Assembly: GCA_052055015.1 (NCBI GenBank)
Contig: JBQJIT010000076.1
From: Malassezia furfur
Lineage: Eukaryota
Length of the DNA: 34,671 nucleotides
Reading direction: 5' to 3' (one strand)
Part shown: one piece after another, positions 4,093-33,641 of the stretch
How the letters are laid out: every line of letters begins with the position of its first letter
How positions within the stretch are numbered: the stretch's first letter is position 1
Position numbers and translations under genes: made by a program
Notes under the pieces: generated by a model
What the model was told of the DNA's origin: nothing
The model's input: only the letters and a program-made list of their open reading frames with translations
The model's database searches: none

Positions 4093-7000
4093 ATGGCTTC
4101 GCTAGAAAGCGATGATCTGCGTGTGCAAGTAACGCATACGAGTGGGTCAACACGTGTTCTCTATTTGCCTATCGGTGCACCTGTCGAGTACGCATGCCTT
4201 TGATCTAACCCCTAGACGCCTTGTCACCGCCGGTGAGGACCATCTCGTCCGCGTTCTCCCCACTGAAGCCACTGCTTCTGATGTGAATCCTATCGTAATT
4301 GAGGATGCCACACGTCCAATGACCTGTATTGATGCCGATGCAGAGTATCTCGTGACGGCCTCCGAAGATGGGTCGGTGCGGCTGTACAAGCATGGATCTG
4401 CTGAGCTAGTCCAAATCATTCGGCGCGAAGTACTCCCTGTGCGTTGTGTTGCAATTGAGAGCGCTAGTCGCCATGGAGCACTCCCACGTACTGCGGTATG
4501 CTCGGACGAACTCATTGTTCGTGTCGTCAACGCAGCGGACCCTCGCAGTATCGTGCTGCTTACCGGTCATTCTCGCGGTGTCCGAGCCGCCAGCTGGAGT
4601 CCGGCTCTGCCGCTTTTGCTTACTTCTGGGTCGGACGGGGATGTACGCGCATGGGATATGTCAGACACTGAGCCTCGGTGTGTCAAAGTCCTACAGAATA
4701 TGCTGCCGGCGCTGCGGCCCGAGAGCGAATTTTCTTCCTCCGTGGTTTGGCATCCATCCGGTGCCATTTTCGCCATGCCTCTGCGCACTCAGGAGATTGC
4801 TTTGGTTCGCGCTCCTATCGCAGCTGCCGAGATGAATGGGGAACATGTCTGGGAATCGGTGGTGATATTCGGGAGCGCCAGCAACACGACATCCGCGGAA
4901 CAGAAAGTGCCGAGCGGCCTGGTTTCTGCCCTCGCCTTTTGTCCTAATGGGCGCTACCTTGCTGCGGCCACGGAGGACATGCAGGTGACTGTTTGGGCGC
5001 TCGATTCTCGTCGCGTGCTTCGGGTGCAACAGGCTGAGGCGCTCGTCACTGGGCTCAGCTGGCACCCCACTCAAGACACACTCGCATGGACCGACGCACA
5101 AGGCCAGCTTGTTCGCTGGGAATCGGTGATAGGAGCCACGCTTCCGAGCCCGTTCGAACACCTCCAATTTGCCCATGCCCAAGCGGAACCAGACGCTCCT
5201 GCGGAGGAGCTGGAGGAAGACCTCGGTGACTTATTTGATGACACGCCCATTGATGAACCCGTGAGCCACAAACCGGTGACGCGGAAACGCCTCGCACCTC
5301 GTGCAGATGCTGATGTACTCAACCAGCCCAGCTTCCAGCCGGGGTCTACTCCGATGGAGGCCCAGCGACGATACCTGAGTGTCTCCACGTTGGGCACTTT
5401 GACGGCGGTCGACCAGGACACGCACCAGACGATATCTTTTGAGTCGTATGACACTTCACAGCGGCGCAATTTCCGGTTCACGGACCACTATGGATACAAG
5501 ATGGCCAGTATGGCACCGCAGGGAATTCTGTTTGCATGCGAGGCGGAGTCGGAAAACCCCAGCACCATCTTTTATCGTCCATTTGAAGACGTTCCGGGTA
5601 TCCAGACGGAATGGTCCATCAATTTGGCACCGAATGAGAATGCTGTGGCAATCACGCTGGGCGGTATCGTCAACGCAGGCTCATATGCGGATGTACATGT
5701 TGGCTCGACCAACATGGTCGACGAAGGCAAGACTTCCGCAGCCACTGCGGTCGTGGCCACGTCACAAGGTTACTTGAGGTTCTTTGGAATGAGTGGGATG
5801 CAGCGCTACGTTTGGTCGCTGGGTCTTCCGGTCGTTACGCTAGCAGCCAGTCCCTCTGCTGTCTTTGTGGTCTACCGCACTGCGAATGTGTCCCCCAATC
5901 ACGTCCATCTTGGGTACCTGCTGATCGATCTCACGCAACTTGCGACGCTTCAGCAAGGGCCGCTTCCCCTGGTTCCCGACGCGACCTTGACCTGGGCTGG
6001 CTTCAATGAGTTGGGTGCACCTGCGGTTTTTGATTCAATGGGTACGTTGTTTGTACTGGACCGCGCTTGGCGTCCTGGCCAAGCACGTTGGGTGCCAGCG
6101 CTGGATACCTCCCATGCACTGCTTCCGACACGAGCTGGGGCCGCAGAGGAGAGTGAGACGCGAGCTCCTCGGGTGCGTTGTTGGCCTATCAGTGTCACAG
6201 CAACGCACTTGCTGGGTCTGTTGCTTCCTATGTCGAGAACATATCCTCAAGTGACCACCGCACGACCGGTTGTCCAGGAACTGGCTATGTCGATATGCGT
6301 TACCCAGCGGGAAAACGCAGCTACACCTTTGGAAGAAGCAGCTCTGCGCTCATCTCTGCTTGCAAATGCGACGCGGGATGCTCGTGCTGCGACTGGCGAC
6401 GAGACACTTCGCGCATCCCGTTTGCCAATGGAGCAGAGCGATCCGAACGCACTCGAGATTGAAGCTGATAAAGCCCTATTACAGCTCGTTCAGCTTGCTT
6501 GCAAAGCCGATCGGTATGCCCGAGCATTGGACGGAACACGTGCGTTGCATTCTGAGACTACCTTGGATGCTGCGCTGAAGATCGCGTCCTTCTTCCATTT
6601 ACCGAGCTTGGCGGACCGCCTAGAGTTGGTCCGTGCACCTTTAGCGGTTCGCAAGGAGCTTGAGGAAGAAACCACAGACCGTGCTTGCGGTGTGGATGCA
6701 TTACTTCGTAACACGGCGCGACTCCCCGTGCCTGTCGCAGAGCAAATGATAAGCACAACGACAACTGTTCCGTCGTCTCAGCGACTCCAAGAAAACTTCT
6801 TGCCCCGACGTCCCAGCGAAACGCATGGGCGTTCTGCGCTTGCACAAGAAGGTCTTGCACAAAAGCAAGCCATGGACTCTTCTCAAACCGCCCCCTCGAG
6901 CGGCACCATTTCTACACAGACGCCTCCTCCCACTAACGACTCGTTACCTACGCCAGCGCCGCCGACTCGTATCAACCCGTTTGCACGAACTCAGACGGTG

Positions 7001-7213
7001 GCCAAGGAACGCCAGCTGCACAAGAATCCAGCGGCTTTCGACCGCAACGACGTGCCGCAAAAACGCAAGGCTACCGAAGCCGAGGCTAATTCAAGCGACA
7101 AACGAGCTTCTGGCAAACAGGCCACGCTTGCCAAGTTTGCGTACACGCCTTCTTCGAATGCCTCTGCCGAAGACTTTGCAATGCCTTCGTCGGACGATGA
7201 AACCGAGTCATAG
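4093..7213 (+). CDS. CTF4: Replisome hub Ctf4/Mcl1/AND-1 (WD40 + SepB domain), about 1030 aa; exons 4093-4187, 4216-7213
   Basis: N-terminal WD40 repeats and SepB motifs QPSFQPGSTP, RRYL, FTDHYGYKMASM, DKALLQL. A 28-nt intron (gtacgc..ctaac..tag) joins MASLES..HTSGSTRVLY in frame to the long ORF. Confidence 0.9.
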
Positions 7214-8437
7214 CTAGAGGTTCTGTTTTGCGAATTGAGCTACAACGTGCACAAAGGTCTCTGCCTGTGCAACAGTGATGGCGTTGTAGAGAGAGACACG
7301 CAAGCCACCGACCGAGCGATGGCCCTTGACGTTGAGAATGTGCTTCTCACCACAGAATTTGGCGAACTTGGCCTCCAGGTCTGGCGATGGCTCCTGCGAG
7401 ACAGGGTCCAAGATGCGGAAGGTGACGTTCATTTGGCTGCGGAACTCTTCGTGCTGAACCACCAGGCGGAACAGCTTCGGTTCTGCCAGCAGTGCATCAT
7501 ACACCAGCTTGCTGCGCTTTGCTGCACGCTGCTGTGCACCGTCGACACCACCTTCCTTGAGCAGGTCGCGGAAGACCAACGCAGAAATGTAAATGGGGAA
7601 CATGGGGGGCGTGTTGTAGAGCGACCCGTTGTCCATCGCGTTCTTGTACACTAGCGAAGTTGGAATCACTGGGGTGTAACTTGCACGCACTGCATCCGGA
7701 TCCACAACCAGTTCGCGCCGCACAATCACGACCGCTAGCCCGCTAGGGCCAATGTTCTTCTGCACACCAAAGTAGATGGCGCCATGCGCACGGACATCAA
7801 TTGGGCGACTCAGAATGTTGGACGAGCAATCCGCCACAATGGGAACACGCTCGCAGTAAGCTTGCGGCAGGCGTTTGATGAAGTCCGAGGGGAATTCGAA
7901 TCCGCCGATCGTCTCGTTGTCACAGTAATGGAGCATGGCAGGCGCTTCTTCCACGGGGCTCAGCGACCATTCTTCTGGGGGCGTGATCGGTGAATCCTTG
8001 TTGGTGATCGAAGCACGCAGATCGGCTACCACATTCACACGGGGCGCCAGGCGCTGAGCTTCCTTGCATGCCTTGTTAGACCAGGCGCCGCTGACGACGT
8101 AGTCGACTGGCGGAGTCCCATGGTGGGATGGATTCCGGGCGGCATGCGCAGCCAGCATGTTGAGCACAGTCGCAGAGAACTGCTCCGTTCCGCCGCCCTG
8201 CAAAAAGAGTACCGCATACTCTTCGGGCACATCCAACAGTTTGCGAAGATCGTTCTCGGCCTCTTGCAGCAGCTTCTGGAAGTTCGGCGAGCGATGGCTC
8301 AGCTCGGTGAGACCCATGCCAAGGTTCTCATAATCCAGCAGGCCTTGTGCTGCCTCAAGCAACACCGGAGTTGGTAGTGTCGAGGGCCCCGCCCCCAAGT
8401 TGATTGTCTGCTCGCGCGCAGCCGTGGACCTAGTCAT
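7214..8437 (-). CDS. SER1: Phosphoserine aminotransferase, 407 aa
   Basis: INLGAGPSTLP, ELSHRS, FLQGGGTEQF, YCDNETIGG, VADCSSNILSR, GVQKNIGPSG (PLP Lys), YNTPP, KGHRSVGGLRVSLYNA. Confidence 0.96.
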   Translation of the reverse strand: MTRSTAAREQTINLGAGPSTLPTPVLLEAAQGLLDYENLGMGLTELSHRSPNFQKLLQEAENDLRKLLDVPEEYAVLFLQGGGTEQFSATVLNMLAAHAARNPSHHGTPPVDYVVSGAWSNKACKEAQRLAPRVNVVADLRASITNKDSPITPPEEWSLSPVEEAPAMLHYCDNETIGGFEFPSDFIKRLPQAYCERVPIVADCSSNILSRPIDVRAHGAIYFGVQKNIGPSGLAVVIVRRELVVDPDAVRASYTPVIPTSLVYKNAMDNGSLYNTPPMFPIYISALVFRDLLKEGGVDGAQQRAAKRSKLVYDALLAEPKLFRLVVQHEEFRSQMNVTFRILDPVSQEPSPDLEAKFAKFCGEKHILNVKGHRSVGGLRVSLYNAITVAQAETFVHVVAQFAKQNL

Positions 8438-8455
8438 TGCTAGCGGAGAAGCGGT

Positions 8456-8466
8456 GCTGACTCAGC
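8456..8466. promoter_or_regulatory. AP-1/Gcn4-type site GCTGACTCAGC in the 48-bp SER1/TFG2 divergent gap
   Basis: Perfect TGACTCA core at 8458-8464, about 20 bp from the SER1 ATG. Confidence 0.55.
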
Positions 8467-8485
8467 GTGCGCGTTGGTCACCGTC

Positions 8486-9700
8486 ATGCCCCATTCGGAC
8501 GCGGAGGACACGACGCCCGAGCCGGTGCCCGAGCCCAGCACTTCGGCGCTGCGCAACGCCCGCCCGGATCGAGAGTTATCCCCAGAGCCTGACCAAGACT
8601 TGAATACGGCGCGGGGCGCTCATCAGGTTTGGCTGGTCAAAGTCCCCAAATTTCTCATTGACGGTTGGAGTCAGGTACACCAAGACGACGTGCGACTTGG
8701 AACCGTTCGGGTATACGAGTACGTTGGTCGGCTAACCCAGTCCCGATCAGAATGGAAATCAGCGCATGGAGCTGCTGCTCCCGGATGCACCGGAGCCAGC
8801 CATCCCGGTCACCGATCCTTCGGAGCGGGCTCAGTTTGCCAACATACCACGCACGTATGACATGCGGCTCACGTCGAGCACGCAGGATACCTACTTGAAA
8901 AACCTTTATGCATTCCAAGAACAACTACTGGATGATGAAGATTCCATTGATGCTGGCAACGACGACGACATTGACGAAATGAGTGCAACCGACTTTTATC
9001 GGAAGCGCAATTTGGGGGCGGGGCCCGCACGCATTCCAAACAAGAAGAAACGTACGCAGTTTCGACTGACACAGGCGTTACCGCACTGACGGGTACAGTC
9101 ACCAACGAAACCGCCCTCAAGCCGCAGCACACCGTGGCGGAAGACAGGAAGACCGACACCAAGAAGCCCATGGCCTTGGGGTCGCGCTCGTTGATCACTC
9201 CCGAGTACCGCGAGATTCTGCGCAACCGACACAAAAACTCTACTACACCCAAGCGTACCGTGAAAATGATGGAGGAGACAGATGCGGGCGTGAACAACAT
9301 GCTTGCTGCCGGTGTGGGCAAAGGCCACGTCAAGTCGCGTGCCGCGAACCTTGTGTATCAGGCGTCGCAGGCACGGTCGAACCAACCACCAGAGAAGTTT
9401 GCTCGTATGCCGCGCAACGAGCTGCTCGATCTTCTGTTCTCGCTCTTCGATCGATACAAGCACTGGTCGCTCAAGCGCCTTCGCGAGGAGACGCAGCAGC
9501 CCTATGCTTATCTCCGCGAGGTACTGCTTTCCATTGCGAACCAGCACCACAATGGACCCTATGCGGGCTCATGGAGCCTGAAGCAAGAATTTGCTGATGC
9601 ACGGCGCGATTCCGGCTCCTCGCAGGCCGCTGGGCCAAGCATTAACCCACCGGAACCTGCCAAAGACGAGCCGGACGCGGAGGAGATGGACGACGTTTAG
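8486..9700 (+). CDS. TFG2: TFIIF beta subunit (RAP30), 389 aa; exons 8486-8718, 8741-9051, 9075-9700
   Basis: VWLVKVPKFL N-terminal motif and winged helix ARMPRNELLDLLFSLF..WSLKRLREETQQP.AYLREVL. Introns of 22 and 23 nt join three track ORFs in frame. Confidence 0.92.
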
Positions 9701-9713
9701 CTATTTACATATG

Positions 9714-10532
9714 TCATACAAGATCATCGTACTGAAGCCAAGGGCTCGTGTCGTATTGGTCGAGACCAAGGCCCCCGCGTCCGCTGCGAACGAAGAGCTC
9801 CATTTCGTGGACGAGTTGATGGGCGTCCTCCGTGCTGCCAATCCACTCGGTGAGTCGCTGTAACACCATGTCTGAACGGATGTCGACGTGGGACAGTAAT
9901 GCAGGAATGTAATAGGAGAGAAATGCAATGTCCAGGTGGGGCCACACTTGCAGTTCCCGTTGCAAAAAGACAGAAAGGAGGCGCGCGTGCGTTGCATTGC
10001 TCTGGAAACCGACAGGGCCTGGGTAAGGCCGGTATTTGGTGTAACGGTTTGAAGCGACATGCTTGGCGTAGCGTCGGTAGCGGTACACACGTCGGCGCTT
10101 CTCGAGCGCCGCATTCAGCTTTCTTCTGTGCCGCTGTTCTTCTCGTCGCCTCACCGTTTCGAGGTCGGGTCGAGGCGCCGGACATGGGTCACGAAGATGC
10201 GGGGTTGAAGCCTCTTCGTCCTCTTCGAGTTCTTCCGCCAGCTCCTCGAGCTGTTTCTGCATGTCATCGTCTAGGTGATGCACAGTGAAGTTTTGTACCG
10301 ATGGGTCCAGGTTATGTAGGACGACGCGACCCACTGGGGCGACACAGAGAGGGCACGTCTTCTTGGTTTGCTGTGTCCGAAGCCATTCTAAAATGCACGG
10401 GAAACAGAAACAAGAATGAAAACATTGCGGCAGGACACACCGATCCAGAACAGGTTCTAGACAGATGGCACAGTTTTGTTCTTCGAAATGCACCGCCGCC
10501 AAGTCAGGGGCGGCTGACGGTACTGCCGCCAT
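9714..10532 (-). CDS. C3HC4 RING-finger protein, putative E3 ubiquitin ligase (fungal Topors-like), 272 aa
   Basis: CAICLE..CFHSCFCFPCILEW..CPLC RING, followed by a C-terminal region with RRRVY, YAKHVASNRYT and FLQRELQVW. First ATG at 10532. Confidence 0.8.
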   Translation of the reverse strand: MAAVPSAAPDLAAVHFEEQNCAICLEPVLDRCVLPQCFHSCFCFPCILEWLRTQQTKKTCPLCVAPVGRVVLHNLDPSVQNFTVHHLDDDMQKQLEELAEELEEDEEASTPHLRDPCPAPRPDLETVRRREEQRHRRKLNAALEKRRRVYRYRRYAKHVASNRYTKYRPYPGPVGFQSNATHARLLSVFLQRELQVWPHLDIAFLSYYIPALLSHVDIRSDMVLQRLTEWIGSTEDAHQLVHEMELFVRSGRGGLGLDQYDTSPWLQYDDLV

Positions 10533-10614: not shown

Positions 10615-11911
10615 ATGCGCGCAGGCCACCGCCAGTCGACCCAGGCACAGTCTGGGCGACAAACCCGCAAGCTTGATAAAAAAGGGCAAGAAAATATGCA
10701 TGCATCGTCCGAAGATGAAGAGTCGAGTCCCGAGATTGTTGAGTCGCTGCCAAGTGTCAGTGATCAGGACGACGAAGCTGCTGAGGAGGCCAGCTTGGGC
10801 GAAAGCGAGTCGGACGACGAGGATGTCGGCCCGTCATATGCACAGTTTGTGGATGAAGACGACCTGGACGAGGAAGATGAGACTTCGGAAGAATCAGAGC
10901 CGCAATCAGATTCCGACGACGAAGAGGTACGTTCCATCCACTGATCCAAGGCAATGCTCCGGCAAGGTATGCCTGTAAACCATTTGTTAACCCAGAAATC
11001 GAAGCAGTTCCTTTCCATGACCTCATGAAAGCCAAGCGTAATATGCGGAATTCCAAGGAAAAGCAGGAAATGGACACTGACGTACTACGTGCTCGACGCG
11101 AAGAAGCTAAGCAGCAGCTGCGCGAATTACGCCCAGATGGAGATCGTGGACCCAAAAAGACACCCGAAACGAAGAAGGAACAGCACATTGAATCGCGAGA
11201 GCACAAGAGTGCACCGACCGTGATGTCTTCGCGGCGGCCAGTTTCTCGGGCACGTACAGTCGTTCAACCGGTGCAGCCATCTAAAGGCCGTGACCCGCGC
11301 TTTGACTCCCTCTCCGCGGGTCCCGTGAATCTCGATCTCTTGTCCAAATCGTACAAGTTCTTGCCTGAACTCTACGAAAAAGAACTCAAATCACTCAAGG
11401 CGACCCACGACAAATTGAAGCGAATGGAGGCGCACCATGCTGGTCCGCATGCCAAGAGCGAGCAAGCACTAAAAATACGGGAAGAGAGACAAAACGTGGA
11501 GTTGGCGCTCCGCCGTGCAGAAAGCCAGCGCAATGAGAGACTCCGTCGCGAAACGGAGCGCAGTGTCAAGTCGGAGATCAAGAAAAACAATCAGCGCCGC
11601 GTCGATGCGGGGCTGCGTCCGTATTTCCCGAAAAAAGGTGCGTCGAACATACTCTGACATCAGCCGAACGCACTGCACAGGTCTTGCGACACAAATACGA
11701 ACGCCTTTCACACGAGCACGGTAAGGACGGCGCTTCTGGTGCTCTTAAGAAAGCAATGGAGCGCAAGGTACGCAAAGACGCACAAAAAGACCGCAAATCT
11801 TTGGACGCCGCTTTAGGAGGAGGGTCAAGGACAGACTTGGCTGCGTCTAAACGAAGCGGGGTGCATGATGCAGCAGATAGACCGCCGCGCAAGCGCGGGC
11901 GCCGTGGGTAG
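10615..11911 (+). CDS. RRP36: rRNA biogenesis protein Rrp36, about 405 aa; exons 10615-10926, 10951-10966, 10996-11637, 11664-11911
   Basis: Acidic N-terminus, then KSAPTVMSSRRPVSRAR, RDPRFDSLS, SYKFL, PYFPKK. Introns of 24, 29 and 26 nt restore the frame. Confidence 0.88.
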
Positions 11912-11986
11912 CGTTCTAATTGAACAGAGGACTGTGGCCGTGCGACTGTCGGTAGTCATGTGGAGGTCCTACCGCTCTTGACGAGC

Positions 11987-12713
11987 ATGGGTGCCTCGAG
12001 TTCGAAGGGTCCTCGGATCACAAAGCACGACCGTGCTGTATTAGAGTGCGTATGCTTCATTGACACAGCCTTAAATTGCAACGTGATAAACTGCGTCAAT
12101 ACCAGACCAAGGTTGGTCTATCATGACTCACGCAGCTTCAAATCGTGCTTGATAAGGAATACGAAATCACGCGTGATGCAATCGCGGCAGGCCGGAAGAC
12201 ACAAGCCCGTCTGGCATTGCAGAGAAGAGCGTACCAGCGTGGTCTTATAGATCGGACCGAAAACCAACTCACGACGCTTTTGGAACTTGTCTCTACCATT
12301 GAGTTCGCGCAGCTCGAGCAGAGTGTCATGCATGGCCTGGAGCAAGGCAATCAGGTATTGAAGGAAATCCACAAGGAGACCAACCTTGAGCGTGTCGATG
12401 CACTCATGGATCAGACTGCTGAAGCACAATATTATCAACGTGTATGTCACTACTCTCACACCAGGAAATCGACGATCGTCTGGCGTCAAAGCTGTCAGCG
12501 GATGAACAAGAGGAAGTGGAACGAGAGTTGGCGGCACTGGCTGCAGAGGCGCAGCCTCAGGCCGAGGCCGAGACAAAACAGCAGACAATACCCACTATGC
12601 CATCGGCGCCTACCACTGTGCCCTCGGAAGCACAGGAGACGAACCCGATCGGTCAAGCCCAACTCCCTCTCGACAATCCGAGAAAACAATTGCACACCGA
12701 AGCAAGCACATAG
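11987..12713 (+). CDS. VPS20: ESCRT-III subunit Vps20 (CHMP6), 218 aa; exons 11987-12045, 12069-12111, 12136-12441, 12465-12713
   Basis: Myristoylation-type start MGASSSK, ITKHDRAVLDLKLQRDKLRQYQ, LVSTIEFA..GLEQGNQVLKEIHKE. Introns of 23, 24 and 23 nt. Confidence 0.92.
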
Positions 12714-12783
12714 ATTACATTACTGTATAAGAGGGGAGGAGGTCTCAAAAATGGAAACCACTAAATCGTAGCGTGTTAAAACA

Positions 12784-13392
12784 TTACACGGTACCAGAAC
12801 CAACGTGTGCCGTGGCAGTGGTCTGGCCCGAGGCGACATCCTGGGTCACATCGATGTGTCCCTGCTTCGTGTTACCGGTCTCATCACGCTTCTTCTTGTA
12901 GTCGCGGATGGCACTCTTGATCGCATCCTCCGCAAGCATCGAGCAGTGAAGCTTGACAGGGGGGAGTGAGAGTTCCTTGGCGACCTCGGTATTCTTGATC
13001 GCACCGGCCTCCTCGAGGGTGAGGCCCTTGACGCGCTCGGTCATGTAACTGGAGCTGGCAATGGCGGAGCCACAGCCGAACGTCTTGAAACGGACATCTT
13101 CAATAATGCCCTTGTCATTCACCTTGATAGAAAGTTTCATCACATCACCGCAAGCCGGGGCACCGACAAGGCCGACACCGACGTCCTTGTCAGTCTTCAG
13201 AAAAGATCCGACCTGCAAGGTTAGCATCCATCAAGTTGTTCATGCACATACATTACGGGGATTGTTGTAGTGGTCCAATACCTTCTCATGGTACATACGG
13301 ACCTGACGCGGAGCGGCCATCATGGCCGTTCCCGTCGCACGCATCATGCGGCCACGAAGGGCAGAGCTCGCAATCGAAGTAAGCATCGTCAT
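12784..13392 (-). CDS. ISU1: Mitochondrial Fe-S scaffold IscU/Isu1, 189 aa; exons 13392-13252, 13212-12784
   Basis: Arg-rich presequence, YHEKVLDHYNNPRN|VGS, GLVGAPACGDVMKL, FKTFGCGSAIASSS, LPPVKLHCSMLAEDAI. The 39-nt intron contains an in-frame stop. Confidence 0.96.
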
Positions 13393-13564
13393 TGTAGTAG
13401 AGTGGTGTTCTGGTGAAGGTGTGGCAACGATTTGACTATCGCTTAAGAATCCCTTGCTCCCCCGCGAGAGTACTATTTTCCGCCCAGTTTCACCGCTGCC
13501 AATCAGACAAGCTGCGCACGACCATTTGTCACATAGGACCTCCAGATTGGCCGACGATACAATC

Positions 13565-13798: not shown

Positions 13799-14621
<823 letters not shown>

Positions 14622-14792: not shown

Positions 14793-15256
14793 TTACCGCA
14801 CGATGCGGAGACCCAAGCTACGCGCGCTCCCTGCCACGACCTTGCACATTTCTTTCTCGGTGACATCCACGTCCTTCATTTTGATTTTGGCAATCTCGTA
14901 GACATGCTTGATGCTGATGGTACCTGTGACCTCGGCACCAGGCTTACGCGCGCCAGTGCTAATGTTTGCAGCGCGCTTCAATAGCAGGGAAGTCGGGGGT
15001 GCTGAATGAGGACATTTTACGTACTCAAAATATTAAACGAGAACGTGCGGTCCGGCTGGATGGTGACCACTGCGGGGGTCAGAAGACCGGGTTCCAGCTC
15101 AGCTGTCCGCGCGTTGAATTCTTTGGCAAAGTCCATTGCCTTCACACCCTTCGCACCAAGTGCAGGACCCACAGGAGGCTGCGCAGAAGCCTTCCCTGCA
15201 GGCACCATCAGCTTCACGATCGTTGCGGCCGCGGCCTTTCCGCCGGCCTTCGACAT
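14793..15256 (-). CDS. MRPL19: Mitochondrial ribosomal protein uL11m, 146 aa; exons 15256-15025, 15001-14793
   Basis: [57 protein letters not shown] (joined by a 23-nt intron), [17 protein letters not shown]. Confidence 0.93.
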
Positions 15257-15352: not shown

Positions 15353-17684
15353 ATGTCTGCGACGCATGAGCCCGCGCGGGCTTATGTCGTGTCCGGCGGC
15401 TCAGGGTCAGGACCAGGAGAAGCTTCATACAACTCCACTTCGCTTCCAGATATCCTGCGTCGTTCAGGATCATCCAACAAGCGGAAAAAGCGGCGTGCAG
15501 CGATCGAAAATGACAAAATTCTCTCTAAAATCGAACTGATTCAGGACCTAGAATTTCCTGAAGCCAGTAACAAAATCCGCTTCACACGGGATGGTCTCAA
15601 TATTATGGCAACCGGGACGTACAAGCCGCAAATTCGTGTATGGGATTGCGAGCAGCTCAGCTTGAAATTTGAGCGTCACACGGACGCTGAAAACGTCGAC
15701 TTCCAAGTACGTCTTTTGCACCCTGACTCAGATCTTGTCGGACGACTGGACCAAATCCTTGCACCTACAGAGCGATCGTTCGCTTGAGCTCCAGGGCCAG
15801 GGGGGTATTTTGACGACGGTGCGCCTTCCGCGCTTTGGTCGCGCTTTGGGCTATCATTTTCCCAGCGCCGACGCACTGGTCGGTGCATCTAGCAACGAAA
15901 TTTACCGCCTGAATTTGCACCAGGGACAATACTTGGCGCCCTATGTGCTAGGACAGCGGGGAAACTTGGTAAATGGCTGCAATGCGATTGACGTGAATCC
16001 GGCGCACGGCCTTTTGAGCTTTGGGACGGATGGTGAGGGCGTCGTCGAGCTGTGGGACCCACGCATGCGACGACAGGCAGGTGCCCTCAGTATTGCGACG
16101 CAGACAGTCTTGGATGCATCACTGCTTGCATCTCGGCGTCAATTACCCGGCCTCTTCAGCAAGGATGCCGATGCGGATGCCGTTTCGCGTGCGTCTCAGT
16201 CGCTGGCGACCACGGCGCTGGCAAGCGCAGAAGATGGTTTGAATATGGCTGTGGGAACAAGTACGGGCCATGTCCTCTTGTTTGACTTGCGTATGGACCA
16301 GCCTTACTTGTGCAAGGACCAAGGTTTCGGTCTCCCCGTGCATTCGTTGTCCTGGCCGGGCGACCGCAACGCTGCTGCCGCCGCGGGAACAATGGGCGCC
16401 GATGCACACGCACGCTCCGAATCGATGAACAAGGTACTTAGCGCCGATGCTAAAGTCATCAAAGTTTGGGACAAGACGACAGGCGAGAATGTGGTTTCGG
16501 TGTCACCACCCTCTCCGTCGACAAACCTCAACGATGTGCAGCAGTACCCTGGAAGTGGTCTGATCTTTGCGACCGTCGAGGCAACGCAGATGGCTGCGTG
16601 GTATGTGCCTGCTCTGGGGCCTGCACCACGGTGGTGCAGCTTCATTGACAACGTCACAGACGAGATCGATGCAGCCGATGCCGCTGGTGCAGGGGGCGGT
16701 ACGAATGCCTACGAGGATTTCAAGTTTGTGGACCAAGCAGAACTGGAACGCCTCGAACTTACGCACTTGGTGGGCACACCCTTGCTGCGCCCCTACATGC
16801 ACGGCTACTTCTTGTCGCTGCGCTTGTATGAGCGTGCGCGGCTCATGGCTCACCCCACGGCCTACCAGGAGGCCAGGCAGCGCGCGATCCAGGCTAAGAT
16901 CGAACGCGAGGCCGAGAGCCGTGTTCGGAGCGTGGCCAATGCACCCAAACTGCACAAGAGTGTACAGGTTAACAAGGCACTAGCCGAACGATTGGCCAAG
17001 GGTCAGACCAAACACAAGGAAGATACCAAGCTACTGGAGGACCAACGGTTCAAGGAGCTCTTCACAAACCCCGAGTTCCAGGTGGACGAAACGAGCAAGG
17101 AGTTTGCGATGCTCAACCCAAGCACGGCGCAGAACCAGACGCAAAAGCCAGCGCTGCGCGAGACCAGTCGCCGCATGGTTCCTGCCATGGAGGAGGAGAT
17201 CGAAAGCGATCGCGAATCCCTCGATCCAGACGAAGAAGAGGCGCGAGAACTGAGCGACGAGATCCGCACCCCCTCCACTCCCCCGCGGTCGATTCCCCAA
17301 GCCAAGGCACCCAAGGTTGCGAAGCATACACCACGCCTGCTGGACGACGACTCCATGGCGCTGGACGAGCGCGTACAAACGCTTGGCGAACGCGCCGGTC
17401 AGCAAAAGCCCCGGACCTCATCGGCGCGCGCTTCGCAGGACGATGGACCGCAGGGTGCAGCCAGTCTTGCGTGGACGCCGTCGTCAGCGCCGAGCAAGAA
17501 GCCCAAGGCGGGCAAGCGCGCGTCGAAAGAAGATACATTTGGTATGGGTCTGTCCAAAGGTGCTGGCGCGGATCAGGGCTATGGAGCGGATGCACTGGAC
17601 GAGGAAGCACGGTTCGGTCGCACCCAGCGCCGCAAGCCTGGACGCAGTGCGAGCCGCAACGTCATGCGCTCTACCACCAAGTAG
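15353..17684 (+). CDS. ENP2: Ribosome biogenesis protein Enp2/NOL10, 768 aa; exons 15353-15706, 15732-17684
   Basis: [86 protein letters not shown]. One 25-nt intron. Confidence 0.93.
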
Positions 17685-17690: not shown

Positions 17691-18468
17691 TCACAAAGCA
17701 AGGCTAAATGTTAGTATAGTTGACGTACTAGTCCTTGATTTCCTGCTCGGTGAGCCGGCGGAATACGGGCTGTTGCTCGGTCGAGGCGCCAATCACACCC
17801 TTGGTGGCCTGGCCGATAATGCCGATTTCGAGCGTCTTTTCCGTCATTTGTCCTTCGAATCCTTCCTTGAGCGTGAGGATGGCGGTGTGAATCGCGTCCT
17901 CCAAAGAGATATCATCGCTGTACCGCTTCTCCAAGAACGTCTTGGCGTTGGTCATATTCTTGCCCATGGCGCTGGCCTTCCACATGAAGTAGCTCCCGCT
18001 CGGGTCGACTTGGAAGAGGGCAGGGCCGCTTGCATTGTCATAGCCAGCCACAAGAAGCGACACGCCATACGGACGGACACCACCGCTCTGTGTGGCATCC
18101 TGCATAATGGTTGCGATCTCCTGCACCAGGACCTTAATCGAAGGATATTCACCGTAAATCTTCCAGTACGACTGCGCAATTTTACGCGCCTTAGCCAGAA
18201 GCACACGGAAATCGGGGCTCATACCAGAGTACACAATACCAATGTTGGGGCATACGAGCGCGACCTTCTCGAGCGCTGCGTCGTCCACAAGCGGCGACGG
18301 CGCACGCTTCTCGGTTGCGATCACCACTGCGTTTGACGCCTTGATGCCAAGACTCGTAGCTCCCTGGCCAACGGCTGCAAGCGCATGCTCAATCTGAACC
18401 AGCTTCCCGCTCGGGGAGAAGGTCGTAAGCGAGAAGCTGTATGCGCCCTCGCCTGCACCAGCACTCAT
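17691..18468 (-). CDS. PRE8: 20S proteasome subunit alpha-2, 250 aa; exons 18468-17729, 17703-17691
   Basis: [43 protein letters not shown]. Removing the 25-nt intron 17704-17728 restores the usual EIKDYL.. ending (EIKDYLAL*). Confidence 0.95.
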
Positions 18469-18555: not shown

Positions 18556-19336
18556 CTACGGGTTCTTGTTGGTAATGATGTCGGCCTCGGTCACCTTGCC
18601 GGAGATGAGCTGCGTCAGCGAATTGAATACACACATCCTCGAGCATTTTCTTCGGAATGGTCCAGTCCTTGAACAGGTGGTAGCCGATTTTGTTGTTGTC
18701 ACAGTAGGTAGCCAGGTCATTGTCCTTCTTGTCCTTCACAAACAGCACATCGGCATGACGCGCGGCCGACATGTCCGAGATACCGTCACCTGCAAAGAAC
18801 AACAGTGGCGGGTTAGCCATCTTGCGGTAGGGCAGGATGCTTTGCGACTTGTCGTGCCCGAACGCATTGTCAGGGTGACGGTAAACCAGCTCCCACGTCT
18901 TGCCAGTCTGCTCGGGATCAGTGAACTTAACATCGTTCGAGATGACCTCAATCTCGTTGGCATCTTTTTCACCGATGAGGTTCGAGAAGATGGAGCGAAT
19001 GATGGGCGTCATGCCGGACGAGACCACAATGACAGGAATGTTGTTGGCCTTGGCGAAAGCATAGAATTCCTTGAAGCCGGGATCAAGCTTGACATCACGG
19101 CGGACAAGCTCCTCCATCTCGTGGAAGGGGTGCTTGACGGACTGCATCATAGTGCGGAAACCGTCACGGAAACCGATGCGCTCGGCGACAATCTCGTCGT
19201 TGATCTTGCGGCGCGCCTCGTAGCCCATGCCCACGGTGTCGACCATGTGGTCGTTCGAATCGAGCAACGTGATCGTGCCGTCGAAATCCGTCAGGAACAC
19301 GTACTTAGCGTCGGCGTGCTTAGGATTGGCAGACAT
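18556..19336 (-). CDS. HAD-family phosphatase, MtnX-like / Pyp1(YNL010W)-like polyol-phosphate phosphatase, 251 aa; exons 19336-18635, 18609-18556
   Basis: FLTDFDGTIT (HAD motif I), LDPGFKEF, VVSSGM, FGHDKS, GDGISDMSAA. A 25-nt intron lies near the C-terminus. Confidence 0.82.
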
Positions 19337-22087: not shown

Positions 22088-23725
22088 TTATTTAGCCACT
22101 TTATCGAGCAATACCGCCAAAATGAGGAAGAGCAAGGCGAGTCGCTTCAAGTTAGGTGCCACCAACTTCAGAGTCTGTTACGTTAGATCTTCTGGCAAAT
22201 TAAACAAGTAACTTACTGATCTTTTGATCGGTGCGTCAATCGAAGTCGCCGAACGGGTCGGGTTCTTCGGGCGGCCAAAGAGCATCCATTTGCCCAGTAT
22301 CAGTTGGAAGAGGGACAATTTGGTCGTCGTGTACGGCGGATACCGCATCGCCATAATCTTCTCGACCAGATTACCAACAATGCCCGAGGCAGGAGCATCC
22401 ACATATGCTCGCTCGTGAGAAAAGCAGACAAAGCCTTTCTTGCCATGGTATGAGCCATAGCCTGCAGGGCCAGTACCACCAAACGGCAGGTCGTTAATCA
22501 CGAAGTGCAGCAGCATGTCGCCACGCATGGCAGCTCCGCTACGCGTATACCGTAAAATGTAGTCCTTTGTTGCATCCGACTTGGTGAACATATACAGCGC
22601 CAGTGGCTGGTCATTCGCATTCACAAAGTCGACCGCCTCACGAATGTGATCATATGGTACCAATGGCAAAACTGGCCCAAAGATTTCTTCCGACATGGTC
22701 GAGTCAGAACCGTCGACATCTTTGACAACGGTTATCGGCAAGAATTTCGTCGCCTCGTCTGCATCCTTGGTGCCTCCGAACACAACAGTACCTTGCGTCT
22801 TTTCCATGAGAGAATAAACGCGCTTCCAGTGGCGGTCATTGACGATACGACCGAGATCTTTGACATTCTTGTCCATTGTCGGCCAGCGCTCCTTGGCAGC
22901 TTTAATGATTTCAGTCACAAATTTGTCTTGCACCGATCGCTCGATGAGAACATAGTCCGGAGCAATACAGGTCTGTCCGGTGTTGAACGATTTTGCCCAG
23001 AGGACACGCTTTGCTGCGATGCTCAGGTCTGCCGAGCTGTCGATGATCACCGGTGATTTTCCGCCCAGCTCTAAGGTCGTGGGGCAAAGCCATTTGGCCG
23101 CCTTTTCTGCAATGATGCGGCCTACTGTGCCATTTCCCGTGTAGAAGATATGCTCAAAACGCTGTTCAAGCAACGCAGTTGATTCCTCAATACCTCCATT
23201 TACCACTCGTGTCATTTCAGGGTCCAAATACTTGGGCCAAAGGTCCGCAATAAGTTGTGCCGTGTGCGGGGCAAGCTCGGATGGCTTCAATACCACCGTA
23301 TTACCAGCGGCAATGGCACCCACAACAGGGCCCAACTGCACTGCCATAGGATAATTCCATGCGCCAATGATCAGAACAGTGCCCTGCGGGTCCTTGAGAA
23401 CCTGCTTCTTGTGAAGCATGTAGGCAGCCCCCCCGGAAACAGACTTAGGCTTCGCCCACTTCGACAGGTTGTTGATGGCATCAATAATCTCGTTCTTTAC
23501 TGTAATAATCTCGCCGAAGCCCGTCTCCATCGGCGGACGCCCAAGGTCTTGCATAATTGCCTTGGTGAAATCCGCTTCATGGTCCGCGATGAGAAATGCG
23601 AATTGTTTCAGCTGGTTCTTCCGATACTCCAAGCTGCGTGTTTTTCCTGTCAAAAAAGACGAACGCAGCCCTTCGACGATCTTAGGGATGTCTCCCACAG
23701 GCGTATTCTTCACAACCGAGCTCAT
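22088..23725 (-). CDS. ALDH3-family fatty aldehyde dehydrogenase (Hfd1/FALDH-like); exon 1 is 23725-22217, last exon is either 22174-22088 (tail anchor, 531 aa) or 22191-22183 (-SKI, 505 aa)
   Basis: IIGAWNYP, KPSE, FYTGNGTVG, LELGGKSP, GQTCIAPDY (catalytic Cys), EEIFGP, PFGG. Donor GTAAGT at 22216 with two branch/acceptor units. Confidence 0.9.
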
Positions 23726-24304: not shown

Positions 24305-25311
24305 TCAAGCGGTGGCGTTCGACACCTCGGCAGGCTCCTCCGTGTTCGCAGGTTTCTCCGTCGACGCGGACTCCTCGGGCTGTAGCGCGACCGAAATTGC
24401 GATCGTACGGCCGTGCACTTCTTTGCCATTGTTTTCCGCCAGCGCCTTTTGCTGCGCCTCTTCGTTGGGGAACTCGACGAAAGCAAAGCCGCGCGAGTGT
24501 TTAGGCTGCTGACGGTGGTAGACAATGTTGGCACTGATCGCAGGGTACGCCGAAAAGAGCTCCATCAGATCCTCGTTCTTCACCGAGTACGAGAGATGCG
24601 AAACAAAAAGCAAAGTCTTGCTCGGCACTCCCTGTGCCTCCTTCGCCTTTTTAGGTGCCTTGGGCTTTTTCGCACGGCCGTTGTTGGCCTTGGCCGGCGC
24701 ATTAGGCTGCGCAGAGACATCGATTTCGGTTGCCCTGGCGTCCTCAGGTTGGGCAGATGGCACCGGTGCCTCAGGAAGAGCCGACGTGCCTTCCTCACCC
24801 ACATCTTCGCGAGGCTGACGCGTCAAGTTCTGACCACGGGTCGAAGTCGCACGACCGCTCGCGCGGCCACGACCACGCGTAGCAGTGCGCGGGTTGGTAC
24901 GTTTGGGGGAACGACCAAACAGTTCCACAGAGAGCGTCGTATCTTCCAACTTCGTGTTAGCAAGCGATTCGACGGCCTTTTGGGCGACCTCGTGTGACTT
25001 GTAGGCTGCGACGGCGGAGATTTGTGACCGGTTCTCCCGCACAGTGATACGCAGTTCCGAGCTGCTGGTCAGCGATATAAATACGTACATAGGCCCTGTG
25101 CTCTCCAGCAAGGACTTCAAGTCAGCCAGGCGAGCGGCGATAGGGATGTTATCAACATAGACCTGCGATACGTGTTAGAATCCAGCTTGATTCCGGGCAT
25201 GCTACGAACCTTGTTTGTACCCGTCGCAGGCGTAGACTCCGGCACAGGAGTCACCACAGCTTCCACTGGGGCATCAGTGACGGAAATGACTTCTGCGTTT
25301 GTAGCTGCCAT
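24305..25311 (-). CDS. Two-RRM RNA/ssDNA-binding protein with an RG-rich linker (Sbp1/Tcg1-like), about 310 aa; exons 25311-25210, 25162-25089, 25061(or 25064)-24305
   Basis: RRM1 VYVDNIP..., linker TRGRGRASGR, RRM2 PSKTLLFVSHLSYSV..SRGFAFVEF..NGKEVHGRTI. Introns of 47 nt and 27/24 nt (CAGCAG tandem acceptor). Confidence 0.75.
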
Positions 25312-25451: not shown

Positions 25452-25786
25452 CACGTGCGGTACACGTGCCCACTGTACGTCACCATACCAGAATGACGTC
25501 ATAATTGTTATAGCCGCGCCAAGCTTGTGGCGAATGTGGCGTTGTGGGCTGCCCCAGGGGCACCCACCGATTGACTACGTTTCCATTGCGGAACCGCGAC
25601 GGTGTATTGCACGACACTCCCGTTGACATTCGTCCTTCTGCATACTGTCGTCTGTAAGCTAATCTCGGGCTGGTAAACGAAAAGCCAACCCTGGTGCATT
25701 TCTTCGCGACCCGTGTGTGTGCCCCGCACCTCAATTAACTTTGATCAAACACGCTCGAAGCGAACAGTGTTGACCATCTGACGTCA
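25452..25786. promoter_or_regulatory. CRE and E-box cluster in the RRM / bZIP divergent promoter
   Basis: CACGTG at 25452 and 25463, TACGTCA at 25476, ATGACGTCAT at 25493-25502, TGACGTCA at 25779-25786. Confidence 0.6.
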
Positions 25787-30189: not shown

Positions 30190-30225
30190 GATGTCTGTAG
30201 ATTAGGCTCAACGTGGCGTGTTGCC

Positions 30226-30316
30226 TATATAAATGTCACGGACCGTACCGGGTGGACCGTGCACCCGATTCCGTCCCGCGGCTTCTAGGAACGTCGCCAC
30301 GTTTCTAGAACACGTG
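30226..30316. promoter_or_regulatory. HSP104 promoter: TATA, heat-shock-element units and E-box
   Basis: TATATA about 40 bp upstream of ATG 30189. TTCtaGGA at 30283 and TTCtaGAA at 30303 (20 bp apart, in 5-bp phase). CACGTGAC at 30311. Confidence 0.6.
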
Positions 30317-30344
30317 ACACTGACGCCTCGACCGACGCGCCTGG

Positions 30345-31735
30345 ATGAACGCGCAGCTGCTCAGTGCGTGCGCGCCACTTACCCAGATCCTTTTGCGCGC
30401 GATACGCCGGAGCGCGTAGAATCGACGCTTGATAACGCATACGCAAACTGCCTCGCGTATAGCTCGAAAAAGGGGCTCTTTCCAGGGAGTTACCTCGCGG
30501 TTGGGCGCACTGATGGATTCGTGACTGTGTGGGATGTGGAGACGCGCAACGTGCTGCGCTGGTTCGGGGGGCATGTCAAAACAGTGACAAGCGTGAGCTG
30601 GTCGCCGTACAATCGATACCTTGCGACCTCGTCGCTGGACTGGAACGTGCACATTTTGGACCTCGCTCAAGGTCGCATCGTGCGCTCATTGCACTTTGAC
30701 GCGCCGGTGGTGCAGGTGCTCTTCGCGCCGGACACGAGGTACGCGTCTTGCTGATACAGCTGTCGCATGGTGGTTCTCCTGGACTCACGCGAGGCCGTGC
30801 TGGTGTCGGTCAGCGCCAACGAGCCGACACGCGTGCCGCTGGCGGTGGGTGAAAGTGCAACGGCCGCGTGCTTTACACCATCGGGCGCCTACCTGTTTCT
30901 TGGCACGACCAAGGGAAATGTTCTCATGTTGGATGCCGTGTCAGGCACCATGCAGGGTGAGCCTGTGCCGATCGGTGGCTCATCGGTCCGCCAGCTCGCG
31001 TTCGATGCAACAGGGCGGCACTTGGTCGCTAACTTGAACGACCGCACCTTGCGCACCTTTAGCGTGACTGAAACGCGCGGCAAGCCCTCACCCTATGCGC
31101 TTACGCAGCGATCCAAGTTTCAGGACCTCGTGGGGCGCACACCATGGAGTGGGATCTCATTCAGCGCCGACAGCGAGTACGTCATGGGCGGCGCAGCACA
31201 GGACGCGGGGCATCATATATACCTCTGGGACCGGGACGCGGGCGTCTTGGTCAAAATTCTCGAAGGCCCCCGGGAGCCGCTAATCTCTGCGCAATGGCAT
31301 CCCGTTCAGCCACAGATCGCCTCGATCGCGGCGTCCGGCGACATTTACTTGTGGAAGACGAAGTGGACCGAAATTTGGAGTGCCTATGCGCCCGGGTTCG
31401 AGGAGCTCGAGGAAAACGTCGAGTACGAAGAGCCAGAAGACGAGTTCGACTTGGTAGGTGTCCATTGCTCACCACAGGAGGACGAAAGTGAGCTGAGCCG
31501 CAAAAAGCAGGATGAGGAAGAGGCGGTCGTGAATGTCTTTTCTACAGGCCCTGCCTCGGATGCGTTGGTGCTGCGGAGCATGCAACCCTACGTGCCGCCG
31601 ACGCGCCGCTCCATATGGGCGCCGCGTTTGGGTGGGGACACCCAGGATGTGTCTATGGAGGACGACGATGACCAGTTTACCTTTTTCCTCGCGCCGCTCC
31701 TCGAGCCGGCCGATGCATCCGAGCGCCATGTATAG
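30345..31735 (+). CDS. SWD1: COMPASS subunit Swd1/RBBP5 (WD40), about 440 aa; exons 30345-30363, 30387-30738, 30760-31453, 31478-31735
   Basis: Spliced start MNAQLLNPF..PE, YLAVGRTDG, GHVKTVTSVSWS, KFQDLVGRTPW, LVKILEGPRE, WSAYAPGFEELEENVEYEEPEDEFD. Introns of 23, 21 and 24 nt. Confidence 0.92.
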
Positions 31736-31745
31736 CACTATACCA

Positions 31746-32240
31746 CTAATCATACACTGTGTTGTCAGTCGCACGACGTACCATGCACAATGGCATACCA
31801 GAACGTCCACCACAGCAGGAAACTGAGAATGTTTTCCTGTGCGCCTTGCAGAAGCACCCACAGGCTGAGTTGGCGCGCGCGCTGCGCCGGCGTTGCGGGC
31901 GTGCGCAGCTGGGCCGCCTTAGCAGGCACGAGGCGCTCGCTCGCATCGGTGGTCATCGGCGCACTTCCAAGTACAAAGTAGGCATGCGGCCGCCCCTTAG
32001 CGTTCACCAGAAGCAGCACCGTGTTGAGAAAGACGACTGACAGCACAAAGAAGCCAAAGCCGGCCAGATTTTGGAGTCCCAACACACCGGCGATGGAGCC
32101 GGCGATGGACAAAGTGAGTGATCGGAAACTGAGTGAGACGATTTCACGTACGAGTGCGCCTGGGCCAGGTTGAATCCGACGTTTTCCGCGTTGAACTGCT
32201 GCACCCACGGCGTGGGCTCGGACCGCGCTTGCACCACCAT
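31746..32240 (-). CDS. EMC6: ER membrane protein complex subunit 6, 148 aa; exons 32240-32152, 32128-31782, 31756-31746
   Basis: ENVGFN..FRSLTLSIAGSIAGVLGLQNLAGFGFF and ENILSFLLWWTFWYAIVHVYD* after removing introns of 23 and 25 nt. Confidence 0.9.
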
Positions 32241-32276
32241 CGTCGTTACGGGGTCACGTGCACCACCGCGGTCGGC

Positions 32277-33641
32277 ATGAGCGTCGTGACGCTCGAGGAG
32301 TTCCTGGAGGTGCGTCGGTCGCGGCATTCACGCAGCTCCTGAATGAGGAACAGTACCTTGACCTGGCTAAGTTGCGAAACTATGCCCGACATGGCATCCA
32401 CCCGCAAGTGCGAGGCGTACGTGGCACGACTCACACAGGAAGTCTGGTTGTACCTCCTCGGCGTGCTGTCGGCGGACAAGAGTGCGTTACGTTGCTGACC
32501 GCAGGCCAAGAAATAACGGCAGTGCGCAACAAGTTCCTTGAGTACGAGTCTGTGAGCAAGCGGATACCGGTGATGGAAAAACAGATCCGCACCGAGGTGC
32601 TGCGCTACTACCGCCAACGGCTGCACCCCAAGCTCGGCAATCACCAACGCTTTGGCGTGTCTAGTAGGTGCATTATCTCACGCAGTCATACGTGGTCCGC
32701 GTGCATCGCGATCGAGTATGGAGGACGAGGAGGAGAAACAGACACTCAAGCGCGAGGTGCCCTCCCAGCACCAGCCGACATACCCCCGCATTTTGCCCTC
32801 GACGCAATACGGCGTGCTGACGATGCGATCCAACCCCACGGTGGACGATTCGGAGCTGGTGTACGAGCAGCGCCGGCTCTCTCAGATCGTGGAAAACGTG
32901 CTGTGCGCTTACTTGAACCGGCACATTTTGAATCCGCCGCGCGACGGCGACGACCTGCACAACCCCGCGCCGACCGACCAGCGCGACGAAGAATATGCGG
33001 CGCTGCAGGCCACGATGGAATCGCGCATGCCGCGTGCGTACCAATGGGCGCCGCAAGCGAGTCTGCTGCCCGGTACCAACCTGGGCGACTTTCACCCGTC
33101 GCTGGTGTACCTCTGTGCACCGTTTGCGCAGTGTGTGCGCGCCGAGGCGGGCATCTATTTCGCATTCGAGCGTCTCATGGCGATGATCGAAGACTACAAC
33201 GTAATCCACCCGCTGCCGCAGCGCGTTGCGTCGTTCCTTACGCTGTTCCGTCGGACGTTGCCGGAGCTGCACGCGTATTTCGAGGCGGAAGAGGTGGATC
33301 TGGTAGCTGTCATCACGAGTTGGCTGCAACACCTGCTCGCGCGCGAGATGCAGATGAACGACCTGATGCGGCTCTGGGGTACGTTAGGCCCGCTCACCCA
33401 GACACCTACTTTGCGATGCCCGATCTGCTCGATCTGCACCTCTACGTGTGCCTGGCCATCCTGACCAACTGCAAGGACGCGCTCGAGGAGCTCGATCGGT
33501 CCGAGACCACCGGCATGCTCTTCTCGCTCCCGCCATTGGACGTCGATCGTGTATGTGCGCGCGCTCACACAGATCATTAGCGACGCCATGAACCTGCGCC
33601 TGTCCATTGAGCAGGACGAGCAGGAGCCGCTGTACGAGTAG
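32277..33641 (+). CDS. TBC/RabGAP-domain protein, about 408 aa; 7 exons (32277-32309, 32336-32416, 32439-32481, 32505-32663, 32686-33378, 33402-33550, 33573-33641)
   Basis: LDLAKLRNYARHGIHPQVRG|EVWLYLLGVL, FRRTLPELHAYF, SWLQHLLAREM, MRLWDTYFA, HLYVCLAIL. Six introns of 26, 22, 23, 22, 23 and 22 nt each restore the frame. Confidence 0.85.

Follow-up and report, generated by a model that had tools for sequence, protein, structure and literature searches.

Predicted spliceosomal introns of mostly 21–29 nucleotides in a 34.7-kb sequence of the yeast Malassezia furfur

How short can a spliceosomal intron become while still carrying the signals by which it is recognised? This question is raised by a stretch of Malassezia furfur DNA (contig JBQJIT010000076.1 of assembly GCA_052055015.1; 34,671 nucleotides, analysed as a whole and called the window here), in which protein-coding frames are interrupted by GT–AG segments that are mostly shorter than 30 nt. 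A first-pass annotation had counted 29 introns, 25 of them 21–29 nt long with a mode of 23 nt, and we recovered the same places and lengths in rebuilt gene models. Judged from sequence, the 29 segments are very probably genuine U2-type (GT–AG) spliceosomal introns that have shrunk to about the minimum able to hold three splice signals.

The window has a G+C content of 51–63% and is densely filled with eukaryotic genes, about 23–24 in number. Both strands were scanned for GT...AG segments of 17–80 nt that join open frames, genes were then rebuilt by hand, and the junctions were tested by single-exon searches followed by alignment of the spliced models to full-length matches. The 29 introns fall in 15 housekeeping genes, and in all 15 rebuilt models their removal yields a frame running from ATG to stop. 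This amounts to about 1.2 introns per gene (29 introns in about 23–24 genes); the remaining eight to nine genes appear intron-free (flavohemoglobin-like, glycosyl hydrolase, class-V aminotransferase, RING protein, kinase, bZIP and ClpB/Hsp78-like genes and an unassigned frame at the right end). One intron is 21 nt long, four are 22, eight 23, four 24, four 25 and two 26 nt, with single introns of 28, 29, 39, 40, 42 and 47 nt (mode 23, median 24, mean 26.4; 25 of 29 at 29 nt or less). The length is not a multiple of three in 22 introns, and five of the seven that are multiples contain an in-frame stop.

Twenty-one of the 29 junctions are gapless when compared with orthologous proteins or with the intron-less DNA of syntenic relatives (Table 1). 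The closest named proteins are those of other Malassezia species: EMC6 of M. obtusa (82%), Vps20 of M. japonica, M. yamatoensis and M. psittaci (72–74%), and Swd1 of Malassezia sp. CBS 17886 (71%) and M. sympodialis (59%). All three SWD1 junctions are gapless against nine orthologues, the curated M. sympodialis protein among them, and TBC junctions 1, 2, 3, 5 and 6 against orthologues from Violaceomyces, Testicularia, Ustilago, Pseudozyma, Sporisorium and Kalmanozyma. The proteins that are not gapless at VPS20 junctions 1 and 3 comprise a call that is truncated or reads through, an Epithele protein whose alignment has a gap of 21 residues and the M. psittaci protein with a deletion. The C-terminus of spliced EMC6, ...VHVYD, is shared with M. 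obtusa and with more distantly related homologues, and the intron of the MtDH-like gene interrupts a GGNRG-I-GLG nucleotide-binding motif. In RRP36, a micro-exon of only 16 nt (10951-10966, plus strand), coding for AMLRQ and one further base, lies between introns of 24 and 29 nt; the same 16-nt exon lies between introns of 28 and 29 nt in one syntenic relative (locus L001), and the stretch is contiguous in another (L005).

As for the other eight junctions, the introns of ENP2 and ALDH have same-site counterparts in relatives, TFG2 intron 1 and RRM intron 2 are placed by Pfam profile coordinates, one (TBC intron 4) falls where conservation is poor, and three are placed by reading-frame logic and motif only. 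The support for RRM intron 2 is the weaker kind, RRM_1 coordinates fitting 24 exon-2 residues plus a split codon upstream. Exon 2 of the CTF4/WDHD1-like gene begins at position 20 of profile PF24817. In a search of the PDB, the match of TFG2 exon 3 to yeast Tfg2 started only at residue 39, at a distance from the intron 2 junction, and TFG2 exon 2 found no match. Ten short queries were also searched against Pfam; nine of them, namely CTF4 exon 1, the start of TFG2 exon 3, RRM exon 2, EMC6 exon 1 and five small exons of TBC or ALDH, had no match, and the one query to give a match was RRM exon 3, residues 1–60.

A single metagenome scan, with VPS20 exon 3 as the query, yielded five loci belonging to two relatives, L001 and L002 (51–52% G+C) and L003–L005 (52–55% G+C), of which L001 and L005 were compared in detail; for five genes, four loci were used. 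The gene order RRP36-VPS20-ISU1-MtDH-MRPL19-ENP2-PRE8-HAD is kept in the relatives, and ALDH follows suit in L004 and L005. At RRP36 introns 1-3 and the introns of ISU1, MtDH, MRPL19, PRE8 and HAD, intron-less coding DNA of a relative equals the spliced product of the window. Introns at shared sites differ in length and are unrelated in sequence except for the signals: over the 12 shared positions in L001 and L005, the window intron is the shorter at ten, equal at one (RRP36 intron 2) and longer at one (ALDH). At shared sites, the intron medians of the two relatives, 46 nt (n=8) and 31 nt (n=6), exceed that of the window. As a lead drawn from 29 introns, this suggests that the species may stand at the short end of its genus.

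Intron presence varies within the lineage, and the direction of change (gain or loss) needs an outgroup. Five window introns (MtDH, MRPL19, PRE8, HAD and RRP36 intron 3) are missing from both syntenic relatives. The relatives in turn carry one further VPS20 intron (66 and 38 nt) and, close to the C-terminal end of MRPL19, another intron; both are missing from the window.

The introns share a tight anatomy. All 29 start with GT and end with AG. The donor hexamer is GTACGT in ten, GTGCGT in five, GTATGT in four, GTACGC in three and GTAGGT in two, with five singletons, so that 24 of 29 fit GTRYGY; in the 25 short introns (29 nt or less) position +5 is always G, and position +6 is T in 21. A branch motif of the form [CT]TNA[CT] is present at the sequence level in every intron, its A lying 4–12 nt from the 3' end; the 5-mers are CTCAC (eight), CTAAC and CTGAC (seven each), CTGAT (two), and TTAAC, TTGAC, CTCAT, TTCAC and CTTAC (one each). 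Within the 25 short introns, the linker between donor hexamer and branch 5-mer measures 6–8 nt in 17, and the branch A occupies positions 16–24 (median 18), in keeping with the closeness of donor G and branch A that had been claimed for the shortest introns. Exactly 5 nt follow the branch A in 16 of them, which leaves 2 nt between 5-mer and AG; this spacing is 3 nt in five others and 1, 4 or 5 nt in the remaining four. The base preceding AG is C in 22 of 25. Together, donor, branch 5-mer and AG make up a median of 57% of the length of a short intron, no space is left for a polypyrimidine tract, and the G+C content is 52%, compared with 57% for the window. The layout described in the first-pass annotation, with a GTRYGY donor, a short spacer, a branch site, a few nucleotides to the AG and no polypyrimidine tract, is thus accurate on each point measured.

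This anatomy was condensed into a composite pattern (GT[AGT]NG[TC], 5-13 nt, [CT]TNA[CT], 1-4 nt, AG) that was searched on both strands of the window. It gave 36 matches, compared with a mean of 8.6 (standard deviation 2.9, maximum 17) in 200 second-order Markov resamples. Twenty-three of the 36 coincide with introns of the gene models, and 23 of the 25 short introns are captured.

A typical intron would accordingly consist of a 6-nt donor (GTACGT, GTGCGT or GTATGT), 6–8 unconstrained bases, CTNAC, two bases and AG. Its branch A would lie about 17–18 nt from the donor G, giving a lariat with a loop of about 17–18 nt and a 5-nt tail. Recognition would proceed by intron definition, which seems required because the signals occupy more than half of the intron, and the anchoring of the branch site to the 3' splice site means that no polypyrimidine tract can take part. 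The comparison shows where the segments lie, how long they are and which signals they carry, that conserved proteins are restored, and that related genomes keep, lack or resize the same introns. From this we infer that the segments are removed from RNA, that the branch-point adenosine is the one assigned here and that small nuclear ribonucleoproteins are in some way accommodated.

Several points weigh against accepting all 29 segments as introns. Support for this organism is comparative and statistical. The composite motif alone is unspecific, as 13 of its 36 matches fall outside the model introns, about the level expected by chance; because of these 13, one of which lies inside the flavohemoglobin-like coding sequence, the motif by itself is insufficient to call an intron, although motif and frame restoration together are enough. 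SWD1 intron 3 and RRM intron 2 are multiples of three without an in-frame stop and would be frame-safe if retained. RRM intron 2 further has two possible acceptors in a tandem CAGCAG (24 or 27 nt), both in frame and differing by one serine, and the surroundings of TBC intron 4 are variable. The introns of CTF4, TFG2 (intron 2) and RRM (intron 1) are those placed by reading-frame logic and motif only; at each of them the frame of the downstream exon is closed by an upstream stop with no ATG in between, so that parts of conserved domains would be lost unless the segment is spliced out. Finally, traces of spliced cDNA were sought in Logan/ENA protein clusters, and all ten members checked (P0168 for EMC6, P0140 for VPS20) are unspliced genomic translations; P0237, a non-NCBI member of the M. 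obtusa EMC6 cluster, is likewise an unspliced read-through.

Some of these points could mean that a minority of the segments is not constitutively spliced, being in-frame coding insertions, alternatively retained segments or introns bounded elsewhere; the candidates are SWD1 intron 3, RRM intron 2, the ALDH intron (42 or 25 nt) and TBC intron 4. Besides the two frame-safe introns and the alternative acceptors of RRM intron 2, the idea draws on an internal CAG at 25 nt in the ALDH intron and on eight additional residues at the site of VPS20 intron 2 in the proteins that NCBI lists for M. yamatoensis and M. psittaci. Against this, the eight extra residues of SWD1 occur in none of nine orthologues, and the RRM_1 profile coordinates have no space for 8–9 added residues. 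The 25-nt ALDH alternative, which we rejected, has no branch motif and reaches a stop after two codons, losing the hydrophobic tail that is conserved in L005. The additional VPS20 residues are missing from M. japonica, CBS 17886, Pleurotus and Choiromyces. We therefore regard a non-constitutive minority as unlikely.

A second possibility accepts the introns and concerns the machinery that removes them. A gap of only about 5–8 nt between donor and branch site might forbid a conventional pre-spliceosome containing both U1 and U2, in which case early assembly, or factors such as U2AF, SF1/BBP, Prp40, Slu7/Prp18 and the small nuclear RNAs (snRNAs), would be altered. The 6–8-nt linker in 17 of 25 short introns, the 5-nt tail in 16 of 25 and the missing room for a polypyrimidine tract are all in line with such a change. 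In other systems, U2 proteins contact the region upstream of the branch site, and here such a region would overlap the donor. In Stentor, some regions of branching factors that face the active site reportedly lack conservation (PMC9505925). Yet the same organism, with introns of 15–16 nt, retains the complete set of snRNAs and the majority of spliceosomal proteins (PMC9505925), U2AF is kept in myxozoans (PMC13644364), and the Yarrowia branch site, 2 nt from the AG without a polypyrimidine tract, has been described as a constrained intron structure and not as a new machine (PMC2483917). No snRNA or splicing-factor gene was found in the 34.7-kb window, and our literature searches turned up no paper on the Malassezia spliceosome. 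Because the window is without such genes, and because organisms with shorter introns keep the full snRNA set and largely conserved proteins, we give a modified spliceosome low weight and deem it improbable.

That the interruptions reflect assembly errors, frameshift mutations or pseudogene decay is next to impossible, given that all 29 have the same GT...CTNAC..AG layout, that they lie exactly where orthologue alignments resume and that same-site introns occur in independent assemblies of relatives.

If these segments are introns, annotation procedures that do not allow for their size should misplace them, as the first-pass annotation had predicted. Indeed, alignments of Vps20, EMC6, TBC and Swd1 revealed wrong public proteins of relatives at these very sites. 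Among the four named Malassezia Vps20 proteins at NCBI, two are faulty: those of M. yamatoensis (P0141) and M. psittaci (P0142) have eight extra residues at the intron 2 site, and the latter has a deletion at intron 3 as well. Both hold ...KVRVARLT... at the intron 2 site, which, going by the residues, would be the translation of a retained GTGCGT...CTGAC intron. An intron is read through in all five members of the P0140 cluster and in all five of the P0168 cluster; in P0001 the first three TBC exons are missing and the last intron is translated, and P0020, P0022 and P0025 have false Swd1 N-termini. The Logan/ENA proteins look like intron-blind open-reading-frame calls and so tell little about eukaryotic gene finders, whereas the two NCBI cases do. 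Since public protein sets are wrong at these sites, comparative work on Malassezia proteins should admit introns as short as about 20 nt.

Introns of very small size have been described before in the genus Malassezia. The phrase "very short introns" has been used of it (PMC7426719), M. sympodialis ATCC 42132 has 5350 introns, averaging 30 bp and 99% supported by RNA-seq, in its 4493 genes (PMC5389616), and the median intron length of M. restricta KCTC 27527 is 30 bp, the mean being 37.2 bp (PMC9241646); for the annotation of M. restricta, gene finders were run with a minimum intron length of 15–20 nt (PMC6473144). The window belongs to the same lineage as these two species and shares with them very short GT–AG introns, at about one per gene as in M. 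sympodialis, but its sample is shorter (median 24, mean 26.4, n=29). As very short introns are an accepted Malassezia feature, our finding leaves that picture unchanged. The novelty claimed in the first-pass annotation was overstated in so far as introns of about 30 bp were already in print (PMC5389616, PMC9241646), while the 22–25-nt mode itself was not met in the literature searched. Our searches found no paper with such a mode, with the intron architecture or with the spliceosome of Malassezia, although preprint supplements may hold more, and the cited passages of the Malassezia papers give no mode, motif or branch-site spacing. The relevant passage of a 2026 article, in which Malassezia goes unmentioned, names ciliates, microsporidia and dicyemids as the groups departing from the rule of "no introns under about 30 bp" (PMC13644364); the part of a fungal intron survey that concerns M. 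sympodialis treats it only as intron-poor (PMC8476143).

Introns of nucleomorphs measure 18–21 nt. The comparison with ciliates and microsporidia that had been drawn in the first-pass annotation holds, the size range of the window introns equalling that of Paramecium, with its average of 25 nt (PMC8997360), and lying near the microsporidian, dicyemid and myxozoan extremes (PMC13644364). Ciliates (Paramecium, PMC8997360; Stentor, PMC9505925) share with the window the size class, the GT–AG ends and intron definition, and Stentor has the same 5-nt tail after the branch A (PMC9505925) that is seen in 16 of 25 short window introns. In contrast, introns of ciliates are rich in A and U (75.6% in Stentor) and their branch consensus is weak, whereas the short window introns have 52% G+C with strong CTNAC and GTRYGY signals, and the window comes from a culturable basidiomycete yeast.

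A different likeness is offered by Yarrowia lipolytica, Trichomonas vaginalis and Giardia lamblia, in which, as in the window, the polypyrimidine tract is missing and the spacing from branch motif to terminal AG is short and constant (Irimia and Roy 2008, PMC2483917). The distance is 2 nt in Y. lipolytica (PMC2483917) and in 16 of 25 short window introns. However, introns in these three species are few and much longer (median 204 nt in Y. lipolytica), and their branch motif is a strict ACTAAC (PMC2483917), compared with a CTNAC variable at position 3 in the window. Microsporidia (Encephalitozoon), dicyemids and myxozoans resemble the window in having canonically bounded introns shorter than 30 bp, with medians of 22 bp in myxozoans, but they are obligate parasites with strongly reduced or fast-evolving genomes (PMC13644364). 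Short microsporidian introns are spliced inefficiently, at a median of about 25% (PMC13644364).

The comparative literature on introns below 30 bp, as searched, omits Malassezia (PMC13644364). A culturable Malassezia could be used to test how a spliceosome handles a lariat loop of 17–18 nt, and transformation of Malassezia has been reported (PMC5654937). Were it the case, which we doubt, that this lineage stands at the short extreme of its genus (mode 23 nt, more than half of the intron being signal), with U1 and U2 unable to bind side by side and the order of assembly or the early factors changed, it would provide the first culturable, transformable fungus for bench study of the lower limit of intron size.

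Table 1. Introns of the window with their positions, the lengths of same-site introns in the syntenic loci L001 and L005, and the support for each junction (slashes in residue strings mark the junction)
Intron	Length (nt)	Position	Strand	L001 (nt)	L005 (nt)	Support
CTF4/WDHD1-like	28	4188..4215	+			exon 2 frame without ATG before upstream stop; donor and CTAAC branch motif
TFG2 (TFIIF beta) 1	22	8719..8740	+			Pfam TFIIF_beta_N 2-35 end exon 1; 40-90 begin at exon 2 residue 3
TFG2 2	23	9052..9074	+			frame change joins TFIIF_beta_N exons to HTH-domain exon; exon 3 frame without upstream ATG
RRP36 1	24	10927..10950	+	28	none	in-frame stop if retained; spliced product contiguous in L005
RRP36 2	29	10967..10995	+	29	none	L005 contiguous; L001 same 16-nt micro-exon, then intron
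RRP36 3	26	11638..11663	+	none	none	contiguous in L001 and L005; Pfam RRP36 profile 127 / 132 flank junction
VPS20 1	23	12046..12068	+	29	25	gapless vs Malassezia, Pleurotus, Choiromyces Vps20 (6/8 aligned proteins)
VPS20 2	24	12112..12135	+	65	31	in-frame stop if retained; gapless vs M. japonica, CBS 17886, Pleurotus, Choiromyces
VPS20 3	23	12442..12464	+	37	39	gapless in 6/8 aligned proteins; P0140 reads through, M. psittaci (P0142) deleted here
ISU1	39	13213..13251	-	55	none	contiguous in L004, L005; Pfam NifU_N 1-15 / 20-125 flank
Short-chain dehydrogenase (MtDH-like)	40	13858..13897	+	none	none	contiguous in L001, L002, L004, L005, residues 1-260, 0 gaps
Mitochondrial uL11 (MRPL19)	23	15002..15024	-	none	none	contiguous at residue 77 in L001, L005; between Ribosomal_L11_N and Ribosomal_L11 domains
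ENP2/NOL10	25	15707..15731	+	112	30	same-site introns between conserved flanks; exon 2 frame without ATG
PRE8 (proteasome alpha 2), before last 3 codons	25	17704..17728	-	none	none	relatives contiguous ...KDYLAL-stop, residues 1-250, 0 gaps
HAD-family hydrolase	25	18610..18634	-	none	none	contiguous, 0 gaps, in L001, L004, L005
Fatty-aldehyde-dehydrogenase-like (ALDH)	42	22175..22216	-	gene not in locus	31	L005 same-site intron, then similar hydrophobic C-terminal tail
RRM-protein gene 1	47	25163..25209	-			reading-frame logic only; without splicing no ATG upstream of first RRM strand
RRM-protein gene 2	24 (or 27, 25062-25088)	25065..25088	-			RRM_1 profile position 30 = exon 3 residue 6
SWD1 1	23	30364..30386	+			MNAQLL/NPF... 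gapless vs M. sympodialis, CBS 17886, Violaceomyces, Ustilago
SWD1 2	21	30739..30759	+			in-frame stop if retained; gapless vs 9 orthologues
SWD1 3	24	31454..31477	+			no in-frame stop; ...EDEFDL/EDE... gapless; retention = 8 residues found in 0/9 orthologues
EMC6 1	23	32129..32151	-			gapless vs M. obtusa EMC6 and more distant homologues; exon 2 frame without ATG
EMC6 2, before last 2 codons	25	31757..31781	-			spliced ...VHVYD = P0169, P0173, P0182, near P0189; read-through forms begin ...VHG
TBC/GYP1-like 1	26	32310..32335	+			gapless vs Ustilaginomycotina orthologues
TBC 2	22	32417..32438	+			...VRG/EVWLYLLGV... gapless
TBC 3	23	32482..32504	+			gapless
TBC 4	22	32664..32685	+			poorly conserved stretch, alignment plausible, not decisive; frame change needed, motif present
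TBC 5	23	33379..33401	+			...LMRLW/DTYFA... gapless
TBC 6	22	33551..33572	+			...LDVDR/IISDA... gapless

Some intron candidates and matches to the composite motif lie outside the introns of Table 1. The match at 1525-1549 (minus strand) was dropped as a false positive, lying in frame within the flavohemoglobin-like coding sequence, and a candidate at 11904-11927 (plus strand), beyond the stop codon of RRP36, is required by no gene model. The motif also occurs upstream of the start codons of ISU1 and the RRM gene, at 13496-13519, 25670-25689 and 25739-25765 (all minus strand); these three matches could be introns of 5' untranslated regions or chance occurrences.

The last ALDH exon (22091-22174, minus strand) codes only for a basic-then-hydrophobic tail, ...KRLALLFLILAVLL..., and a similar tail follows the intron in L005; this C-terminal tail is likely a membrane anchor. 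At 3863-3964 (minus strand), a 102-nt segment matches tRNA in Rfam at 52 bits, while ARAGORN found no tRNA; this segment is probably a tRNA with an intron of its own.

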